64,000 bases of DNA from the NCBI GenBank assembly GCA_015134355.1, contig CP043978.1, positions 198,902-262,901 of the forward strand, written 5' to 3'. This document shows, in pieces, positions 8,312 through 63,437 of the stretch. The position numbers and the translations under genes were made by a program. A model generated the notes under the pieces. That model saw nothing but the letters and a program-made list of their open reading frames with translations, searched no databases and had not been told where the DNA came from. The number at the start of each line of letters is the position of its first letter. The stretch's first letter is position 1. Source of the stretch: Candidatus Stammera capleta. Lineage in GTDB: Bacteria; Pseudomonadota; Gammaproteobacteria; Enterobacterales; Enterobacteriaceae.

Positions 8312-9532
8312 TTAATAATTTTTTCCTTTAAAAATTTTTTTAGTTTTTTTCTTAATTTTTTTTATGATATAATTTAAATATTTTTGTTTATTTTTATTTT
8401 TAATATTATTTCTAATATTAATTTTATTTAAATTTATTTCTTGATCACCACATATTATTATATAAGGTATCTTTTGTAAAGTATATTTACGTATTTTAAA
8501 ATTTATTTTATTATTTTTAATATCTATTATAGATCTTATATAATTATATTGATTTAGAATTTTAAATATTTTTTTACAATATAATATATGTTTCTTAGAA
8601 ATATTTAATATAACTATTTGTATTGGTGTTAATCATATAGGTAATCATCCTTTATTTTTTTCTATTAATATACCTATAAATCTTTCTAAAGATCCTAATA
8701 TAGCTCTATGTATTATAATAGGATATTTTTTAATATTATTTCTATTTATAAAATAAACTTTTAAATTTTTAGATAAATTAAAATCTATTTGTATAGTACC
8801 ACATTGTCATTTTTTATTTTGTTTGTCTTTTATTAAAAATTCTATTTTTGGTCCATAAAATGCTCCATCATTTTTATTTATTTTAAATTTTATATTTTTT
8901 TTAATTAAAATATTTATTAATTGATTTTCTATATTATTTCATTTTTTTTTTTTACCTAGATATTTTTTAGGTCTAGTTGATATATATATATATATTTTTT
9001 TTAATTTAAATATTTTATATATTTTTTTAATAATAAATATACATTCTAATATTTCTTTTTTTATTTGTTTTTTTGTACAAAAAATATGTGCATCATCTTG
9101 AGTAAAAGATTTAGTTCTCATTAAACCATATAATGAACCTGAAGGTTCATTTCTATGACATATACCAAATTCAGATATTTTAATTGGTAAATCTTTATAT
9201 GATTTTACATTATTTTTAAATATTTCTATATGTCCTAAACAGTTCATAGGTTTTAAACATAATTTAATATTTTTTTTAATATAAAAAATATATTTTTTAT
9301 AATTTTTTCAATGTCCACTATTTTTTCATATTTTTTTAGGTATTAAATATGCTGTTTGTACTTCTTTATATTTAAATTTTTTTATTTTTTCTCTAATTAA
9401 ATTTTTTATTATATTTATTATTATTAATCCATTATTTGTTCAATAAATAATTCCAGGATTATTTTTTTGAATATGAAATATTTTTATATTTTTATTAATT
9501 ATTCTATGATCATTTATTTTAAATTTATTCAT
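8312..9532 (-). CDS. thrS: Threonine--tRNA ligase, catalytic and anticodon-binding domains only (N-terminal TGS/editing half absent)
   Basis: Starts [35 protein letters not shown], which aligns near residue 240 of E. coli ThrRS ([29 protein letters not shown]). It continues through [12 protein letters not shown] and [27 protein letters not shown] to ...[10 protein letters not shown]...KGKNY. An in-frame TAA at 9566-9568 limits any upstream extension. Length 406 aa versus 642. Confidence 0.85.
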
Positions 9533-10159: not shown

Positions 10160-13100
10160 ATGTTTATATTATATCAATCTAATGATTTTAAAATATTAAA
10201 GAATATGTTTTTATATGTTTTTAAAAAAAAACAATTTAATAATTATAATGATAATATAATTTTAATATCTAATAATAATGTTTCTTTAAATTTAAAAATA
10301 TTTTTTAGTAAATATTTAGATATATTTGCTAATTATAAATTTTTATTAACTGCTAAATTTATATGAAATTTATGTAAATTATTTTTAAAAGATATATCAG
10401 ATATTAATTATTTTAGTAAAATTAATTTATTTTTTGTAATATTAAATATTTTACCTAAATTAATTAAAAATAATAATTTTTTAAAATTAAAAAAATATTT
10501 AAAAAATGATTTAAATTATATTAAATTATTTGATTTATGTTATAAAATATCAGATTTATATGATAAATATTTAGTTTATAGACCTTATTTATTGATTAAC
10601 TGAGAAAATAATATATTAGATAATAATATTAATGATGATAATCAAATTTGACAATGTATTTTATGAAAAAAAATTATAAATTTTTATTTTAAAAAGTTTA
10701 ATTGTAAATTATATAGATCAAAAGTTTTATTTAATTTCTTAAATATTTTAGAAAAAGAAAAAAATTTATTTAAAAAATTATATAAACATATTTATATTTT
10801 TAATGTTTATAATTTACCACCTTTATATTTAGATATTATTTATTATATGTCAAAACATATTGATATTCATTATTTTTTAATAAATCCATGTAAAGAATAT
10901 TGATTTGATATTAATAATTTTATTAATATAAATAATAATTTAATAAATAATAATTATAATATATTTAATTCAAATTCATGTATATTATATTATGCAAAAA
11001 TATTTTCTGAATATTTGTATATAATATTAAATTATAAAAATATATGTGAAATAAATTATTTTAATAAATATTTTAATAAAAATATTTTAGGATATTTTAA
11101 AAAAAATATATTATATTTTTATAATAATAAGTTTAATTTTTTAAATAAATTAAAATATATAGATAATTCTTTAATTGTTAAATCTTGTTATGGTTATTTA
11201 GATGAAATTTATAAATTAAAAAAATTTTTATTAAAATTATTATTTAAATATAATTATAAATATAATGAAATAGCTATAGTTATTACAGATATTAAAAGAT
11301 ATTTATTTTATATTAATTTAATATTTTCTGATTATAAATATAAAAAAATTATACCATATTTAATTTTAGATAAATTTCATGATAATAATATATTTAAATT
11401 TTTAATAAAAATATTAAATATTAAAGATATTAATTTAAATTCATATGATTTTTTAGAATTATTTAAAAATAAAATTATTTTAGAAAAATTTAATATTGAT
11501 AAAAATGAATTAGATGTTATATTAAATTTAATTAATAATATAAATTTTTTTAATAGTATTAAAAATTTAAATATTAATAAAAATTTATTTAATAAAATCA
11601 ATTATATAAATTTTATTGAAAATATTAAAAGTTTGTTATTAAGTTATTTTATAAATAAAAAATATTTTATATGAAATAATATTTATAGTTATAAATTATT
11701 AGATAGTAACTTTATATATAATATAATAGCTAAATTTTCAGATTTTATTTTTAAAATATTATATTGAAAAAATATTTTTAATAAAAAATATTTTTTTAAT
11801 GAATGAATTATTTTATATTTTAATATAATAAATGATTTTTTTTCAAAAAGTTTGATAAATGATTATTATTTTTTAAATAAAGAGTATTTAAATATTTTAT
11901 TAGATAATTATAAAATTATAAATTTTAATAAAAAAGTTAATATTGATTTTTTTATTAAAATAATATGTATTTTATTTAAAAAAAAAAATAAAAATAAGCA
12001 ATATTCAATTAATCATATTAATATTAGTTCAATTTTTTATTTGAGATCAATACCTTTTAAAGTAATTTGTATATTAGGTTTAAATTTAGATATTTATCCT
12101 AAAAATATTTTAAATTATAATTTTGATTTAATGTATTTATATCCTAAATTAGGAGATAGAAATAAAATAGAATATGAAAAATATTTATTTTTAGAAAATT
12201 TTATATTTGCTCAAGATAAGATTTATATAAGTTATATTAATATATCATTAGAAAATAATAATAAATATTTTCCTTCTATTTTGTTAGATAATTTATTAAG
12301 TTATATTAATATTAATATATATAATTTTAAAAACAAAAATATTAAAAGATTTTTTTATAGTTATAAAAAAAAATTAAATGTTAAAAATAATATTATATCT
12401 TTAAAATCTTTTTATATTTTATTTAAAAAAAGTAATATTATTTTATTAAAGGATATTCATAATTTTTGATTTAATCCAATAAAATTTTTTTTTAATAATT
12501 CATTAAAAATTTTTTTTTATGAAAATATTAGTAATAATTTAACTTATAATATAAAAGATTTTTATAATTTTAAGAAAAAAATTATTAATAGTTTATTAAT
12601 AGGTAAAAAATTTAATAAAAATTTTTATTTATATTTACAAATATTTAATTTAATACCTTTTGGTAATTTTGGGAAAATTTTTTGAAAAAATGAAAATTTT
12701 AATATAATTAAATTATTTAATTATATTAATAATATATCTTTTGATTATAAAGATTATAAGTTTTCAATTTTAATTAAAAATATTTATTTAAATGGTATTT
12801 TAAATATTAATAATAATTTAAATCATTATAAATTTTTACCTAAAAATTTAAATTTAATAGATGGTTTATTATTTTGAATAGATCATTTAGTATATTGTTC
12901 ATTAGGTTTTAATAAAAAAAGTATATTATATGGTTATAATAATTTATTTATATTTGAAAATTTAGATATATATTTATCTAAATATTTATTATATTTTTAT
13001 ATAAAAGGTTTTTTATTTGGTATTAATAATCCATTATTTTTTTTACCTAAATTAAGTAATTATATATTGTTAAATATATATAATTTTAAAATAAAAAAAT

Positions 13101-13306
13101 TATATATTAATAAAAGAATTATTAATTCAATATTTTTAAAAATAAAATATATAATAAATAATAAGAATTATAATTATTTTTTAAACGATGTTTATATTAA
13201 TTATTTAATAAAATATAATTATATAATAGATGAAAATTTAATTATTAATAATGCTAAAAAATGATTATTACCTATGTTAAAATATATAAAGATTAAAAAT
13301 TTTTAA
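10160..13306 (+). CDS. recC: Exodeoxyribonuclease V gamma subunit
   Basis: MFILYQSNDFKIL...DLYDKYLVYRPYLLINWENN...LPPLYLDIIYYMSKHIDIHYFLINPCKEYW matches E. coli RecC (MLRVYHSNRLDVL...DLFDQYLVYRPDWLAQWE...LPPVYLQALQALGKHIEIHLLFTNPCRYYW). Pieces 10160, 11015, 11852 and 13067 share one frame and are joined only by TGA. Length 1048 aa. Confidence 0.8.
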
Positions 13307-13311
13307 ATGTA

Positions 13312-16300
13312 ATGAATATTTTTGATTATTTAAATAGTTTTATAAATAAAATTAATTTAATTGAATCTTCTGCAGGTACTGGTAAAACTAATATAATTTC
13401 TTTATTATATTTAAGATTTTTATTAAATATTAATATTGAAAGTAAATATTTTTCAAATTTATTAATTAATAATATTTTAATAGTAACTTTTACTGATTTA
13501 GCTTCTTTAGAAATTAAAAATAGGATTTTAAATAATATAAGAAATTTAAAAGAATCATGTATAAATAATTATTGTATTAATGAAAATATAGATATTATTT
13601 TTAATTATATTAAAAATATTCCTAATATAGTTAATTTATTAAATCAAATAGAAAATAATATTGATTATACTTCTATATTTACAATACATGGATTTTGTAA
13701 AAAAATTATTTTTAATAATTTTATAGAATTTAATATAAGTTATAATTGTAAAATATTATCTGATGAATATAATTTAATTTATGAGTTAACTATTTGTTAT
13801 TGATATAATAATTTATCTTTATTAAAAGAAAATATATTATTAATAATATTAAAATATTGATCTAATTATAATTTTTTATTTAATGATATAATTAAAATTT
13901 ATAATTTTAATAATATTAAATGTAATTTTAAAAAAAAAATTTTTAATTCTATTGAAAATTGTTATTTTAGTATTTTAAATTATATAATTTTTTTTAAAAA
14001 AGAGTGATTATTAAATAATAAATATTTATATAATTATTTATTAAAATTTAAAGATAAAATGTTTAGTTTATTAGAATTAAAAAATTTATTTTTACAGATA
14101 AATTTTTGAGCTAAAAGTAAAACTTTAGATTTTTATATTCCTAAAATTTTATATAAATTAAGATATAAATTTTTTTTATATAATTATAAATATACTTATT
14201 TTAATAAAGATTATACATTATTATATTTAGATTTTTTATTATATAAGTTAAATGATTTATATAATTATATATTATTAGATTGTTTAAAATTTATTAAAAT
14301 AAATATTAAATTAAGAAAAAAAGAAAAATTATTAATAAGTTTTGATGATTTAATAAATAAATTTAATAAATTTTTAAATAATAATAATAATTTATTTTTG
14401 ATTAATTATATTAGAAAAAATTATCCTATAATTTTAATAGATGAATTTCAAGATACTGATATTAATCAATATTGTATTTTTAAGAAAATTTATATTAAAA
14501 ATAGTTCTAAATTTAAAACAAAAATGATATTAATTGGTGATCCTAAACAATTAATATATTCTTTTAGAGGAGCTAATATTTTTAGTTATATGTATGCTAA
14601 AAAGAATATTAAGTATATATATACTTGTAATATAAATTGACGTTCTTCTTATTATTTAAATAAAAGTTTTAATTATATATTCACTAGAGTAAAAAATTTT
14701 TTTTTATATAAATATATAAATTATGTAAAGTTAAAATCTGATTTAAATAATAAAAATTTATATATATTAAAAAATAATTGTATTGATAATTCAATAAAAT
14801 TTCATATATTTAAAGATTTGAAATATAAAAATTTAAAATTTAATTTAGCTAAATATTGTGCTATTAAATTAATAAAATTATTAAGTAATAAAAACATATA
14901 TATTTTAGATAAATATAAAAATAAGCGTAATTTATATCCTTCTGATTTTTGTATATTAGTTTATAGTAATACAGATATTAAAATAATTTTAGATGTTTTT
15001 AAGAATTTTAATTTACCTATTTTTTATAATTATACTAAAGATAGTATATTTAATACGAAGGAATCTGAAGATATTATATATATATTAAAATGTATATTAT
15101 TTCCTATATCTAAGATTAATATTAGAAATATATTATTAACTTCTTTGTTTGGTTATAGTATTTTAAATATTAATTTTTATATTGATAATGATAACTATTT
15201 TAATAAATTAATAGAGGAATTTTATTTATATTATGATATATGGAATAAATTTGGTATTTATTCTATGATTAAATATATTATTAAAAAAAAAAAAAAAATA
15301 GTTAATAATATTTTAAATAAAAATGAGTATATAAATAATATTTTACATTTATCCGAAATTTTACAAAATATATATTTAAAATTAAATGATAAATTTTTAT
15401 TATTAAAATGATTAGAAAATAAAGTAATTAATAAGAAAAATATATTTAAAAAAAGATATTATATTAGATCAAATTTTTATAATAAAGAATCAATAAATAT
15501 TTCTACTATACATAAGTCTAAAGGTTTACAATATAATATTGTTTGATTACCATTCTTAATAAAATTAAAAATTAATAATAGATTTTATTATTTTTATAAT
15601 CGTAAAAATTTAAGTTTTAATTTAGACTTATATAAAACATATTATGGAAAATTTTTAATGATGGAAGAAATAATTTCTGAAGAAATTAGACTGTTTTATG
15701 TGGCAATCACAAGATCAATATATCAATGTAATATTTTTATTTATGATTATGATATTAATAATAAAATTTTTTATAGTAAATATATTAATAATATTTTAGG
15801 AATAAAAGAAAAAAATAGTTTTATAAATTTAAATAGTTATATTAAATCTAATATTAATTATAAATATATTTTAATTAAATTTTTAAATTTATATAAATAT
15901 ATTAAGTATAATAAAAATATATTTTTTAATATAAAAAAATCAAAAAAGAAAGTTTTAAAATTTAAAGAATTTGTCATTAAAAGAAATAAATTTATTTTAA
16001 ATTATTCTAATATTAAAAAAAAAATTAGTTATTTAAATAATTATATTAAAAATAATATAAATAATAATAATTTTTTATTAAGAGGTAAAAATATAGGTAA
16101 TTTTTTTCATAATATTATTGAAAATATTAATTTTAAAAATTTTAATTTTAATATAAAATTTTTACTATTTAAATTAAATGAATTTAATATAGATAAAAAA
16201 TATTTTTTTTTAATTAAAAATATTTTATTTAATTTATTAAATGTTAAATTAAATAATTTAAATATAAATTTATGTAGTTTAAATAAAATTAATATTTATA

Positions 16301-16803
16301 AAGAATTTAATTTTTTTTTATATGTTTATAAAAAATTTAGTTTTATTAATTATTTAAATATTATTAGTAAATATGATCTTATTTCTAGAAAATGTATTAA
16401 TAATAATTTAAATTTTAATTTTTATGGTTTTTTAAATGGTATAATAGATTTAATATTTTATTATAATAATAAATATTATATTATAGATTTTAAAACTAAT
16501 TGAATAGATTCTCATTATTCATCATATAATTACAGAAATATGTTTGAATTAATGTGTAAAAATAGATATGATATACAGTATCAAATATATTCTTTAGCTT
16601 TACATAAGTTTTTAAAAATGAAATATAACAATTATTGTTATAAAAATAATTTTGGTGGTATATATTATATATTTTTAAGAGGTATATTTTTAGATACTAA
16701 TAATAAAAGTTTAACTGGTATATATTTTATTAAACCTAAATTTAAATTAATTTATAAATTAAGTAGGTTTTTTATAAAAAAAAAAATATTTTATGAAAAA
16801 TAA
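13312..16803 (+). CDS. recB: Exodeoxyribonuclease V beta subunit (helicase-nuclease)
   Basis: Walker A SAGTGKT lies at 13369-13389. ILIDEFQDTD, ILIGDPKQLIYSFRGA and the nuclease motif IIDFKTNW...RYDIQYQIYSLALHKFL (D at 16486-16488, K at 16492-16494) match E. coli RecB (YLLDYKSNW...RYDLQYQLYTLALHRYL). Five same-frame pieces are joined through TGA. Length 1163 aa. Confidence 0.85.
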
Positions 16804-18607
16804 GGTAGATGATTTTTTATTAAGTGCTTATAAAAAATCTAAATTAGATTTAATAGATATAAATTTTTCTAAATTATTTTATTTAGAATATGATATTAAT
16901 AGTTATGTATATGTGTTATTTGCATCTATATTAAGTTTATCTAATAGATTAGGTAATATTTTTTTATTTTTAGAAAATTTTTTTGATAGAAATATTTTTA
17001 TTTCTAAATATATTTTAAAATTTTTATATTATTTTTTTAATAATCATATTTCTATTAAAAATTGTATAAATTTAATGTTAAATTCTTATATTGTAAGTGT
17101 ATGATTTAATAACAGATATACTCCTTTTATTTTATATAATGATTGTATTTATTTATATAAGAATTGATATTATGAAAATTATATTATAAATTATTTAAAT
17201 AAAAATTTTTATAATAATAAAAAAAAAAATATAAATTTAAATAATTTAAATTTATATATTAAAAATATTAATATTAATTCTAAATTTAAAAAAATTATAT
17301 TAAGTTCAATATTTAATAAGTTTACTATAATTTCTGGTTCTCCAGGAACTGGTAAAAGTACATTAATTATTAAATTAATTATTTTATTATATAAAATATA
17401 TAATTTTAAGGATAAAAAAGATATTATATTATTATCACCTACTGGTAAATTATCTTCATGATTAACTAATTGTTTATTAAATATTTATAATGAATTAAAT
17501 ATTAGTAATAAATTTTTACCAAATAAGTGTTTTACTATACATAAATTTTTAGGTTTTAATTATTTATATAATTATTTAAAATTTAGTAGAAAAAACAAAA
17601 TATTATCATATTATATAATAATAGATGAATGTTCTATGGTTAGTATAAATATTTTTTATAATATATTATCTTCTTTAAGTAATTATACTAAATTAATATT
17701 AGTAGGAGATTATTATCAGTTAAATCCTATTGAATCTATATCAATATTTAATGAAATTTGTAATATATTATACAATAAATTTTATATTAAAAATTATTTT
17801 AATTATTTTTTATATTATAAAAATATATTTATTCTAAATAAAAATTATCGTTATATTAATAATAATAATAATATTGGTAAATTTTTGAATTTAGTTAAAA
17901 ATAAAAATTATAGTATTTTATATAAATATTTTTTAAATAATTTTTATTCTGATATTATTTTTTATGATTCTAGTAAATTTAATTATGATTTTTTTTTAAA
18001 TTTATGTATTAAATTTTATAAAGTTTATATAAATATTATTTTAAATAATCCAAATATTAAAGAATTATTAAATGTTTTTAATAAGAATCAAATAATTTGT
18101 GTATTAAAAGATACTAATAAGGGTATTATTTTTATAAATAATTTAATAAATAATTATATATATAACAATATTAATAATAAATATTTATATAATTTTAATA
18201 ATGATATTCATTTTTTTGGTGAACCTATTTTAGTTATTAAAAATAATAATAATTTAAAATTATATAATGGTGATTTAGGTTTTTTTATATTTAATAAAAA
18301 TAATAAATTAAGATTATATTTTAATAAAAAATATAATTATTTACATCCATTTATATTATATGGTAATTGAGTTAATGCTTGAGCTATTACAGTTCATAAA
18401 TCTCAGGGTTCTGAATATGATAATATTTTATTTATTTTACCTGATAAATTTTTAAATATATTAAATAATAATATAATATATACAGCTTTAAGTAGAGCTA
18501 AGAAAAAAATTATTATTTATGGTAATATTGATATATTAATTAATAGTTTAAAATTATTTAATAAAAAAAATAATAATTTTAATAAGAGAATAAATTTAAT
18601 ATATTAA
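16793..18607 (+). CDS. recD: Exodeoxyribonuclease V alpha subunit
   Basis: Walker A GSPGTGKS lies at 17336-17359. IIIDECSMV and the C-terminal W(TGA)AITVHKSQGSEYDNILFILP...YTALSRAKKKIIIYG are typical SF1 RecD motifs. The gene overlaps the recB 3' end by 11 nt. Length 604 aa. Confidence 0.85.
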
Positions 18608-18612
18608 TTATA

Positions 18613-19323
18613 TTAAATTTTTTTAATTATATAAATACAAATTAACTCTATATCATTTCATAATAAGTTATTAAATAGTTTGTAATTTTTTTCATATTTA
18701 TAAAATATTTTTAATATTTTAATTATATTAATTATATTATTAAATTTATTTATATTTTTAATAAAATTTTTAAATATTATATTTAAAATTAAAATTTTAT
18801 CTATATTTTTATTTTTAATTTTATTAATTATATAAAATATATCATTAATTTTTTTTTTATTAATAATTTTAATAAGTTTATATATTATTTTATTTATATT
18901 ATTTTTAAATATATATTTATTTTTTTTATTAAATTCTATTAAAATAATATTTTTTTTATTTATTATTAAATTTTTTATATTATATTTTATTTCAAAAATG
19001 AATATAATATATATGTTTTTTTTAAAGTATTTAAATATATATTTTTTGATTAAATAATTAATATTTTTAATATTTTCTATTATATTTATTATAAAAATTT
19101 TATTTTTTGAAATTATATTTTCATTTATTATTTCTTTAATAATTAAATTTCAATTAAATTTTTCTTTTATAAAAAAATTATATATTAATATATTTTTATG
19201 TATATAATTAATTTTATTTATTATATATTTTTTATATTTATATTTTTTATTTATATTATTACCTAATATATAATATATATTATATTTTATTTTATTATTT
19301 TTAATTAAATTATATTTTTTCAT
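18613..19323 (-). CDS. holA: Probable DNA polymerase III delta subunit, shortened
   Basis: An intact 236-aa frame, checked codon by codon, with two TGA codons (18658-18660 and 19150-19152). It lies immediately downstream of leuS, as in the E. coli order leuS-lptE-holA. Similarity is weak: YYILGNN versus YLLLGND, and NWNLIIKEI...KNKIFIINIIEN versus DWNAIFSLC...SRQTLLLLLPEN. Confidence 0.45.
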
Positions 19324-21949: not shown

Positions 21950-23509
21950 TTAATTATAAATTATATTTTTATTAATTTTTATATTTTGAAATTTATTAAA
22001 ATTATCTTTTTTATTTATTAGTTTTAATTTTTTTTTATATTTATGTTTTTTTTTATATTTAATTCTTAAAATATAATAATTTGGTGTTTGAATATTTTTA
22101 TTAGGTACTATTTTAGTTTTAATATTTTTTTTTTTTATATTATATAAGATATTTTTTTTTTTTTTTAATATATAATATGCTATATTTATAGGTAAAATTG
22201 CATGTATTTCTTTAGTATTTTTTTTTAATGATTTTTCTTGTATAGTTCGTAAAATTAAAAGAGACAATGATTTATTATCCCTAATTATACCACTTCCTTT
22301 ACATCTTGGACAAATATAATAATTTAATTCTTTTAAAGATGGATTTAATCTTTGTCTAGACATTTCTAATAATCCAAATTTTGATATATATCCAATTTTT
22401 GTTTTTGCTTTATCTTTATTTATTATTTTTTTAAATTTTTTTTCAACTTTTTTTTTATTTTTTAAAATAGTCATATCTATAAAATCTATAACTATTAATC
22501 CTCCTAAATCTCTTAATCTTAATTGTTTAGCTATTTCTTTAGAAGCTTCTAAATTAGTTTTAAATGCAGTTATTTCTATATTTTTTTCTTTTTTGTATTT
22601 TGAAGAATTAACATCTATAGATATTAAAGCTTCAGTAATATCTATTATTATAGATCCTCCTGATGGTAGTTTAACTTTTCTTTTAAAAGCTGATTCAATT
22701 TGATTTTCTATTTTAAAATAAGTAAATAGTGGTATTTCTTTTTTATAAAATTTTATTTTATTTAATATATTTTTTTTACCTATTTTTTTAATATAATTTA
22801 TTGATGATATATAAATTTTATAATTATCAATTATTATTTCTTTTATATCATTGTTTAAATAATCTCTAAATATTCTTGTAAATATGTTATTTTGTTTATA
22901 AATTAAATAATTTGATTTATTATTTTTAAATTTTTTTTTAATATATTTTCAATTTTTTAATTTTTCATATAAATCTAATTTAAATGTATTTATTGATTTA
23001 CCTAATCCTGAAGTTCTAATTATTATTCCCATATTTTTAGGTATTTTTAATTTTTTTATAATCTTTTTTATTTTTTTTCTTTTTTTTCCTTTAATTTTTT
23101 TAGATATTCCTATTGTATTATTATTTTTATTTGGCATTAGTATTAAATAATTACCTATTAAATTTATAAATGTTGTTAAAGAAACTCCTTTATTATATAT
23201 TTTTTCTCTTGTAATTTGTATTATTAATTCTTGTCCTTTATATAAATTATTTATATTTTTATTTTTTTTATTAATGAAATATTTAGGTGAAATTTCTTTT
23301 AATGGTAAAAATCCTTGTTTAGGTTCTCCATAATCTATAAATACTGCTTCTAGACTAGGTTCTATTCTTATTATTTTACCTTTATATATATTATATTTTA
23401 TTTTTTTATATTTATTATTTTCTATATTTAAATCATATAGTTTTTTATTATTAATTATTGCTATTCTTAGTTCTTCTTTTTGAGAAGCGTTTATTAACAT
23501 TCTTTTCAT
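21950..23509 (-). CDS. rne: Ribonuclease E, catalytic N-terminal half only
   Basis: MKRMLINASQKEELRIAIINNKKLYDLNIE...NIYKGKIIRIEPSLEAVFIDYGEPKQGFLPLKEI matches the E. coli RNase E N-terminus. The Zn-link CPRCKGSG is present. Length 519 aa versus 1061. It is divergent from rluC, as in E. coli. Confidence 0.9.
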
Positions 23510-62945: not shown

Positions 62946-63437
62946 ATGAAAAGAAGAATAATAGGTATAGATCCTGGTACTTATTGTACAGGATATAGTG
63001 TTTTAGAAATTAATAATTTATATTTAAATAATTTAAATGATAATATATTTTTTGTTTCAAGTGGTTGTATAAAAAGTAATTCTAAAATTTTTTCTTTAAG
63101 ATTAAATAAGATTTATAATTATATATTTAATATATTTATTTTATTTAAACCTTTTGAATTAGCTATTGAAAAAACTTTTTTATTTAATAATTTGAATTCA
63201 AGTTTTAAATTAAATCAAGTTAATGCAATTATATCTTTAGCAGCTGTTAAAAATTTTATTCCTATTTATGAATATAATATTAATAAAATTAAAAATTCTG
63301 TATTTAAGAGAACGAATGTAAATAAAAAGTATATTAATGTATTTTTTAAGAAATTTTTTAATATAAAATCTAATTTAGATTTTAATATAACTGATTCTAT
63401 AGCTGTTGCTATGTGTCATATTAATTTAAATTATTAA
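62946..63437 (+). CDS. ruvC: Crossover junction endodeoxyribonuclease RuvC
   Basis: MKRRIIGIDPGTYCTGYSVL...SSGCIKS...LAIEKTF...ITDSIAVAMCH resembles E. coli MAIILGIDPGSRVTGYGVI...GSGCIRT...FAIEQVF...AADALAIAITH. The ORF-track start at 62913 is an artefactual extension into aspS. Confidence 0.8.
   Translation: MKRRIIGIDPGTYCTGYSVLEINNLYLNNLNDNIFFVSSGCIKSNSKIFSLRLNKIYNYIFNIFILFKPFELAIEKTFLFNNLNSSFKLNQVNAIISLAAVKNFIPIYEYNINKIKNSVFKRTNVNKKYINVFFKKFFNIKSNLDFNITDSIAVAMCHINLNY

Follow-up and report, generated by a model that had tools for sequence, protein, structure and literature searches.

In the reduced genomes of insect endosymbionts, the genes for the RecBCD helicase-nuclease were present in all cases examined, those without recA included (Wu et al. 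2006, PMC1472245), and a complete recBCD set, noted as unusual for its size class, has been described for Candidatus Makana argininalis, a Morganella-like psyllid symbiont with a genome of less than 300 kb (PMC11425488), which by its published description is like the case treated here but belongs to an independent lineage and host. The same operon is also found in Candidatus Stammera capleta GCA_036689255, of the same organism group, for which RecB, RecC and RecD were reported to have less than 30% identity and strong structural similarity (monomer folds) to the E. coli proteins (Baktfold preprint 2026, 10.64898/2026.03.31.715528). Stammera is an extracellular pectinolytic symbiont of Cassidinae leaf beetles, and its use of UGA for tryptophan has been published (10.1101/2023.12.12.571295; PMC13695967). 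Here we analyzed the recC-recB-recD locus in a stretch of 64,000 nucleotides of a Stammera capleta chromosome (C1:198902-262901, the window), whose assembly consists of 268,511 bp with 15.2% GC, divided into a chromosome of 262,947 bp and a plasmid of 5,564 bp, the full length (100%) of which matches plasmids of Candidatus Stammera capleta at 82% identity. The results showed that recC, recB and recD are genuine and selectively maintained genes; they probably make up the operon of a functional RecBCD (exonuclease V) heterotrimer, kept most likely for a role which does not depend on RecA. All comparisons across the genus were based on 31 Stammera species genomes, and all gene absences refer to hidden Markov model (HMM) searches of six-frame translations at the thresholds given.

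The original prediction, made from the sequence of the window, had described recC, recB and recD as contiguous and uninterrupted when TGA is read as tryptophan. Computed translation confirmed the three open reading frames (ORFs; Table 1), with no frameshift and not a single internal TAA or TAG under translation table 4, while under table 11 each of them was fragmented into pieces of no more than 281 aa. The GC content of the region is only 9% to 11%, and the longest stop-free run in mononucleotide shuffles of it was 128 codons. The overlap of 11 nt between recB and recD was found as predicted, and so was the removal of ptrA, since E. coli K-12 has the order recC-ptrA-recB-recD and the gap between recC and recB in Stammera is only 5 nt. 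The recC-recB-recD arrangement is identical in all 31 genomes.

All three proteins match the HMMs of their own families, with E-values of 1e-91 to 1e-198. RecB scored 659.7 bits with TIGR00609 over positions 3-1174 of 1175, and RecD scored 307.2 bits with TIGR01447 over positions 6-592 of 597. RecC scored 389.9 bits with TIGR01450, and it carries both the Exonuc_V_gamma N-terminal region and the RecC C-terminal domain, which were above their cut-offs (PF04257, 185.8 bits with a cut-off of 25; PF17946, 44.8 bits with a cut-off of 22.6). In a phmmer comparison, RecB aligned in full length with E. coli RecB (PDB 1W36_B) at E = 7e-139.

The E. coli RecB, RecC and RecD sequences were aligned with the orthologues from the 31 genomes. 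For RecB, helicase motifs I to VI align to those of E. coli (SAGTGKT, IDE(FQD), GDPKQLIYSFRG, NWRS, TIHKSKGLQ and RLFYVAITRS), and the equivalents of the nuclease residues H956, E1020, D1067, D1080 and K1082 are kept (FFHNI, YKEFN, IIDLI and IIDFKTN). For RecD, the motifs of a superfamily 1B (SF1B) helicase are present, namely Walker A (GSPGTGKS), II/III (IDECSM and GDYYQL), V (VHKSQGSEY) and VI (YTALSRAK). The helicase and nuclease motifs of RecB and the helicase motifs of RecD are kept by at least 90% of the genus members, and all catalytic motifs of RecBCD are intact in recA-less lineages, genomes G008 and G016 among them. The RecB Walker A, the RecB nuclease D...K pair, QYQIY and the RecD Walker A were all located by computed translation where they had been predicted; VHKSQGSEY, previously taken as a motif VI-like element of RecD, corresponds to motif V in superfamily 1 nomenclature.

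For close Stammera pairs, the maximum-likelihood (ML) ratio of nonsynonymous to synonymous substitution rates (omega, dN/dS; F3x4, code 4) was mostly 0.04 to 0.10 for recC, recB and recD, with one recC pair at 0.27, in comparison to 0.02 to 0.05 for rne and the aminoacyl-tRNA synthetase genes leuS, thrS and pheS. By the NG86 method, which underestimates dS at the Stammera base composition, omega was 0.20 to 0.57 for recBCD in comparison to 0.1 to 0.3 for the comparison genes. The dN/dS of recBCD is thus far under 1 and roughly double that of the neighbouring translation genes; a value near 1, named in the original prediction as the mark of relaxed selection, was not found. In addition, each recBCD gene of the window's lineage has 282 to 585 one-step paths to TAA or TAG, and the probability that no stop had arisen under a neutral divergence of 0.1 to 0.3 per site is 1e-4 to 1e-26 per gene. 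With all three subunits present, their motifs intact and purifying selection acting on the genes, RecBCD appears to be needed, which is in agreement with what had been proposed from the sequence.

Across the genus, recC, recB and recD were all present in the 31 genomes; recC was intact in all of them, recB in 29 and recD in 30. Some genomes appeared at first to carry a split recC, which turned out to be an artefact of match reporting, and all 31 recC frames are continuous under code 4. The only disruptions of recB and recD are three single frameshifts in homopolymer tracts (A18, A16 and T9), which may be errors of the assembly or else sites prone to slippage; in other endosymbionts, transcriptional slippage rescues such homopolymer frameshifts, reportedly a finding of Tamas et al. 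in 2008. Four genomes (G002, G003, G021 and G046; loci L015, L016, L034 and L043) lack in-frame TGA codons in recB, recC, recD, ssb and priA, are slightly richer in GC and appear to use the standard code, a pattern which matches the basal code-11 lineage of Stammera already published (PMC13695967).

The search for partner genes gave part of the set named in the original prediction: recA, ssb and a diverged priA were found in the genome, as was ruvC, while ruvA and ruvB were not. The prediction that recA lies outside the window was correct, and the gene is intact and well conserved elsewhere on the chromosome (441 bits, 328 aa). RecA is highly similar to the E. coli protein over residues 4-327 and stops short of the acidic tail at the C-terminus (about 25 residues in E. 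coli); a truncation to 289 aa was considered and rejected, since direct translation gives 328 aa with the core and the C-terminal domain, only the acidic tail being missing. E. coli RecA without its acidic C-terminal tail depends less on loaders. The ssb gene was found in all 31 genomes, and ruvA, ruvB and recG in none of them, the window's genome included. The priA gene of the window's genome is diverged (134 + 37 bits, in a 616-aa open frame), and priA is lost in about 14 of the 31 genomes. For the RuvC protein, an alignment by eye suggests Asn (…NITDSIAVA) at the position of E. coli D138.

The distribution of these partner genes differs from that of recBCD. Among the 31 genomes, recA is absent in G008, G013 and G016 and broken in G005, and the three genomes without recA are also the only ones without ruvC, a joint loss which on the housekeeping tree took at least two independent events. 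Furthermore, 15 genomes, each of them with recBCD, gave no dnaA match at E <= 1e-10, and dnaA is thus a gene repeatedly lost within one genus while recBCD stays. Genome G016 has lost dnaA, recA, priA and ruvC and has an intact recBCD, and G008 and G016, both without recA and ruvC, keep recBCD with all motifs and no clear acceleration in rate: the ratio of RecBCD to housekeeping branch length was 1.55 to 2.13 for recA-less lineages, within the range of 1.17 to 2.15 for lineages with recA.

We also looked into the part of RecC predicted to scan for Chi. Based on a list of 12 RecC channel residues implicated in Chi recognition (PMC5959072), eight are kept (L64, W70, D133, L134, D136, R142, R186 and D705) and four are substituted (Q38S, T40N, Q44L and Q137K); W70 and R186 of E. 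coli RecC are loss-of-recognition ('Type I') positions (PMC4614115). The D136 position carries a non-acidic residue in each of the three genomes without recA, in comparison to three of the remaining 28 (Fisher p = 0.004, without correction for phylogeny), and W70 is lost in two of the three recA-less genomes, which hints that the part of RecC for Chi recognition and RecA loading may be under selection only where RecA remains.

The original prediction had further suggested a search for an over-represented, strand-biased octamer that could act as a Chi-like site, and none was supported, neither by a test of the E. coli Chi octamer nor by an unbiased k-mer scan. Leading and lagging strands were assigned with the origin and terminus taken from GC skew only; as side observations, the cumulative GC skew of chromosome C1 is lowest near 120,349 and highest at about position 55, dnaA (235,598) sits at neither extreme, and only 136 of the 236 long ORFs point in the direction of replication deduced from the skew. 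The E. coli Chi octamer, GCTGGTGG, has eight copies in the chromosome, seven of them on the skew-inferred leading strand, and is the commonest of 168 permutations of the same composition. The expectation under an order-6 Markov model was 4.0 copies (z = 2.3), and every copy encodes Ala-Gly-Gly in frame, with L27, GyrB (two sites), the release-factor GGQ motif, GroEL and HisRS as hosts read from the flanking codons. The codons GCT-GGT are used at eight of the nine GCWGGWGG sites, while about 3.4 would be expected from genome-wide codon usage. At the two orthologous GyrB sites the octamer was found in only 2 of 16 and 4 of 16 genomes, while gene-specific codon usage predicts about 49%. Since the octamer codes for Ala-Gly-Gly throughout and is not conserved between strains, we rejected it as a maintained signal and regard it as a by-product of codon usage. 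A scan of all 5- to 8-mers for over-representation combined with leading-strand skew gave no credible Chi candidate, with low power in a chromosome of 263 kb and 85% A+T; the best words were weak (TAAGT with z = 9, octamers with z of at most 4.7) and were attributed to general T/G skew.

In the mechanism we propose, RecB would supply a 3'-5' helicase and the nuclease domain, RecD a 5'-3' helicase and RecC the scaffold, and the three products, if they assemble into an active complex as their conserved motifs suggest, would load on blunt double-strand DNA ends and then unwind and degrade them. For the window strain, the processed end may be passed to a minimal set of RecA, SSB, RuvC and the diverged PriA for repair and restart. 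The core role, and probably the process for which the complex is selected, would be independent of RecA, with the clearing of linear DNA tails off forks that have broken or reversed and the completion of replication as candidates. We favour such a role because lineages without recA, ruvC, priA and dnaA still have an intact operon, whose rate of evolution relative to housekeeping genes is not raised. The conservation of RecD also fits, because recD is dispensable for recombination in E. coli. The roles in double-strand-end processing and linear DNA degradation offered as examples in the original prediction would likewise fit a genus in which recBCD outlasts recA, ruvC, priA and dnaA. A recA-independent rescue of forks through degradation of linear DNA has been proposed for Pseudomonas RecBCD (PMC5959072).

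Several observations weigh against this reading. The identity of the three proteins to those of E. coli is only 23% to 26%, and the scores were under the NCBIfam equivalog cut-offs for all three (659.7 vs 696 for recB, 389.9 vs 583 for recC, and 307.2 vs 310.15 for recD), of which the shortfall for recB and recD is small and is expected for a gene set with 85% to 91% A+T. On a fixed housekeeping tree, the amino acid change of RecBCD is 1.73 times that of translation genes, so the constraint is weaker than on core genes. The nearest sampled relative of the window's genome is G043, with 68% to 72% amino acid identity in RecBCD; for this pair (G000 vs G043) dS is saturated (6 to 40) and the ML dN/dS is unusable, so that for the window strain the lineage-specific estimate of omega comes from NG86 and from the test of nonsense paths. 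The smallest genome, G013 (213 kb), which has lost recA, ruvC, priA and dnaA, carries a frameshift in recB, and the operon may thus eventually be dispensable. Finally, the argument for independence from RecA is a phyletic one throughout.

It is tempting to go further and regard RecBCD as the last-standing machine of chromosome maintenance, with an essential role in the lineages without RecA, PriA or DnaA (the resetting of reversed forks, the trimming of over-replicated ends and non-canonical initiation are candidate roles) and with a RecC Chi channel that decays specifically after the loss of recA. We hold this extended reading as possible but somewhat doubtful; if the decay of the channel does follow the loss of recA, strains with recA, the window strain included, would still use an AT-rich Chi-like signal. 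The opposite position, that RecBCD is kept solely as a Chi-regulated loader of RecA for double-strand-break repair as in E. coli, seems unlikely to us, even though the window's genome has the intact recA together with ssb, ruvC and priA, its RecC keeps L64, W70, D133, D136 and R186, positions at which mutations destroy Chi recognition by the E. coli enzyme (PMC4614115; PMC5959072), and the pattern at D136 suggests that Chi recognition and RecA loading are selected only with RecA. A purely canonical pathway does not explain why recBCD remains complete and without clear acceleration in G008 and G016, nor why recD, unneeded for E. coli recombination, is conserved in all 31 genomes; it would also have to work without RuvA, RuvB and RecG throughout the genus, and with no over-represented, strand-skewed Chi candidate and a canonical Chi that is not maintained at orthologous sites.

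The absence of dnaA calls to mind the idea of Wu et al. 2006 (PMC1472245) that RecBCD takes part in the DnaA-independent replication of dnaA-less symbionts. The 15 genomes with dnaA undetected, and G016 in particular, which lacks recA, priA and ruvC as well, agree with RecBCD as a support of DnaA-independent initiation or restart; however, the window's genome has dnaA, recBCD is equally conserved in strains with dnaA, and the absences were judged at the single threshold above, so that we give this explanation a low probability. Moreover, we know of no mechanism by which RecBCD could initiate replication without RecA and PriA. A defence nuclease which destroys incoming linear foreign (phage) DNA is an even less probable explanation: exonuclease V does degrade linear phage DNA in E. 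coli, and RecD and the RecB nuclease are conserved, but it seems improbable that 8.4 kb would be kept solely for defence in a severely reduced genome with some 236 ORFs, and genes of phages, of restriction or of other defences were not seen, in an analysis which included no search aimed at them. The extracellular life of Stammera in foregut organs and egg caplets (10.1101/2023.12.12.571295) may be relevant to this explanation. The scores under the equivalog cut-offs, the faster evolution than housekeeping genes and the frameshifts in three relatives could also be taken as signs of a non-functional relic not yet deleted, which is strongly disfavoured, and the least probable explanation of all, by frames that stay open in 31 lineages at a base composition at which chance frames run for at most 128 codons, by a probability of at most 1e-4 for the lack of nonsense changes under neutrality, by omega below 1, and by the conserved catalytic motifs.

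Table 1. Coordinates of recBCD, its motifs, partner and neighbouring genes, frameshift loci and Chi octamers (window positions unless marked C1, chromosome, or given for a relative's locus)
Feature	Position	Strand	Remarks
recC	10160..13306	+	1048 aa; 12 in-frame TGA read as Trp; 8.8% GC; predicted non-catalytic Chi-scanning and scaffold subunit
recB	13312..16803	+	1163 aa; 8 in-frame TGA; predicted superfamily 1A (SF1A) 3'-5' helicase with C-terminal PD-(D/E)XK nuclease
recD	16793..18607	+	604 aa; 5 in-frame TGA; predicted SF1B 5'-3' helicase
RecB Walker A SAGTGKT	13369..13389	+	E. coli K29 equivalent
RecB nuclease motif IIDFKTNW	16480..16503	+	D1080 and K1082 equivalents (D-F-K) at 16486-16494
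RecB QYQIY	16576-16590	+	translated coordinates
RecD Walker A GSPGTGKS	17336..17359	+	E. coli K177 equivalent
RecD helicase motif V VHKSQGSEY	18392..18418	+	translated coordinates
thrS	8312-9532	-	406 aa
236-aa ORF	18613-19323	-	between recD and leuS
rne	21950-23509	-	519 aa
dnaA	36673-38088	+	TIGR00362 248 bits (cut-off 344); 480-aa open frame; 3 in-frame TGA
ruvC	62946..63437	+	Holliday-junction resolvase; TIGR00228 86.6 bits at C1:261859-262326; directly after aspS
recA	C1:10495-11484		outside the window
Frameshift in recB, locus L026 (G013)	~11390		locus reoriented, recCBD on +
Frameshift in recB, locus L032 (G019)	~11020		locus reoriented, recCBD on +
Frameshift in recD, locus L043 (G046)	~12640		locus reoriented, recCBD on +
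GCTGGTGG copies	C1: 43401, 98223, 113945, 155872, 197900, 238441, 239425, 257154		

Some observations were also made on the genes around the operon. The 236-aa ORF downstream of recD has no NCBIfam match and is an unannotated conserved gene, kept across the genus with 36% to 70% identity and with an ML omega of 0.10 to 0.28 in unsaturated pairs. The thrS product matches only model positions 169-564, the N-terminal part being missing, and the rne product matches only the first 491 of the 1068 positions of the RNase E model; both shortenings are domain-level truncations of essential genes.

In comparison to E. coli RecBCD (PDB 1W36, 5LD2 and 6SJB), the Stammera system has the same three subunits, the same order recC-recB-recD, the same helicase motifs and nuclease residues, a RecB which aligns in full length, and eight of 12 RecC Chi-channel residues in common. 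It differs in the low sequence identity, in the lack of ptrA between recC and recB, in the use of UGA for tryptophan, in the substitutions at Q38, T40, Q44 and Q137 of RecC, and in the absence of a maintained Chi motif among those searched for and of RuvAB and RecG. The AddAB (RexAB) enzymes do the same cellular job, double-strand-end resection with a response to Chi, but an AddAB identity was rejected, since AddA models gave only 58 to 99 bits in comparison to 660 for RecB, and since a separate RecC and a RecD motor are present, which makes three subunits.

The original prediction had set the retention of RecBCD against the usual discarding of recombination genes by tiny symbiont genomes; the retention itself was confirmed, but it is a known hallmark of reduced gammaproteobacterial symbionts (PMC1472245; PMC11425488). 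Since such retention has been published for these symbionts, including ones of less than 300 kb, and the operon has been annotated in Stammera, its presence here is not new. The Baktfold preprint is an annotation showcase, without selection, genus-wide or pathway analysis, and the genus-wide pattern of co-loss together with the correlation in the RecC channel are modest additions. In our searches, further Enterobacterales genomes with a size near 300 kb (G037, G057 and G082) also had recB, which was not found in those of about 200 kb. The current understanding is unchanged unless these suggestions are experimentally confirmed, and the locus is one more case of a 20-year-old puzzle, namely that reduced gammaproteobacterial symbionts keep an 8-kb helicase-nuclease and shed RecA and repair genes. 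Stammera could nevertheless be a useful natural experiment, with dozens of co-linear genomes of 0.21 to 0.31 Mb, independent losses of recA with ruvC, of priA and of dnaA, and a near-universal recBCD. Its comparison could separate the RecA-independent functions of RecBCD, such as fork reset and replication completion, from recombination, and it could point out the RecC residues that are linked with RecA loading and with the recognition of Chi.

A close parallel to this pattern is in Buchnera, Blochmannia, Wigglesworthia and Baumannia, which have also kept recBCD despite massive loss of repair genes, even in the absence of recA and/or dnaA (PMC1472245). These symbionts have genomes of 0.6 to 0.8 Mb, are intracellular and use the standard code, while Stammera is far smaller, extracellular and mostly of code 4, and the window's strain still has recA, ruvC, priA and dnaA. 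The Buchnera-type pattern, with losses of recA and dnaA and recBCD kept, is seen in Stammera within one genus.

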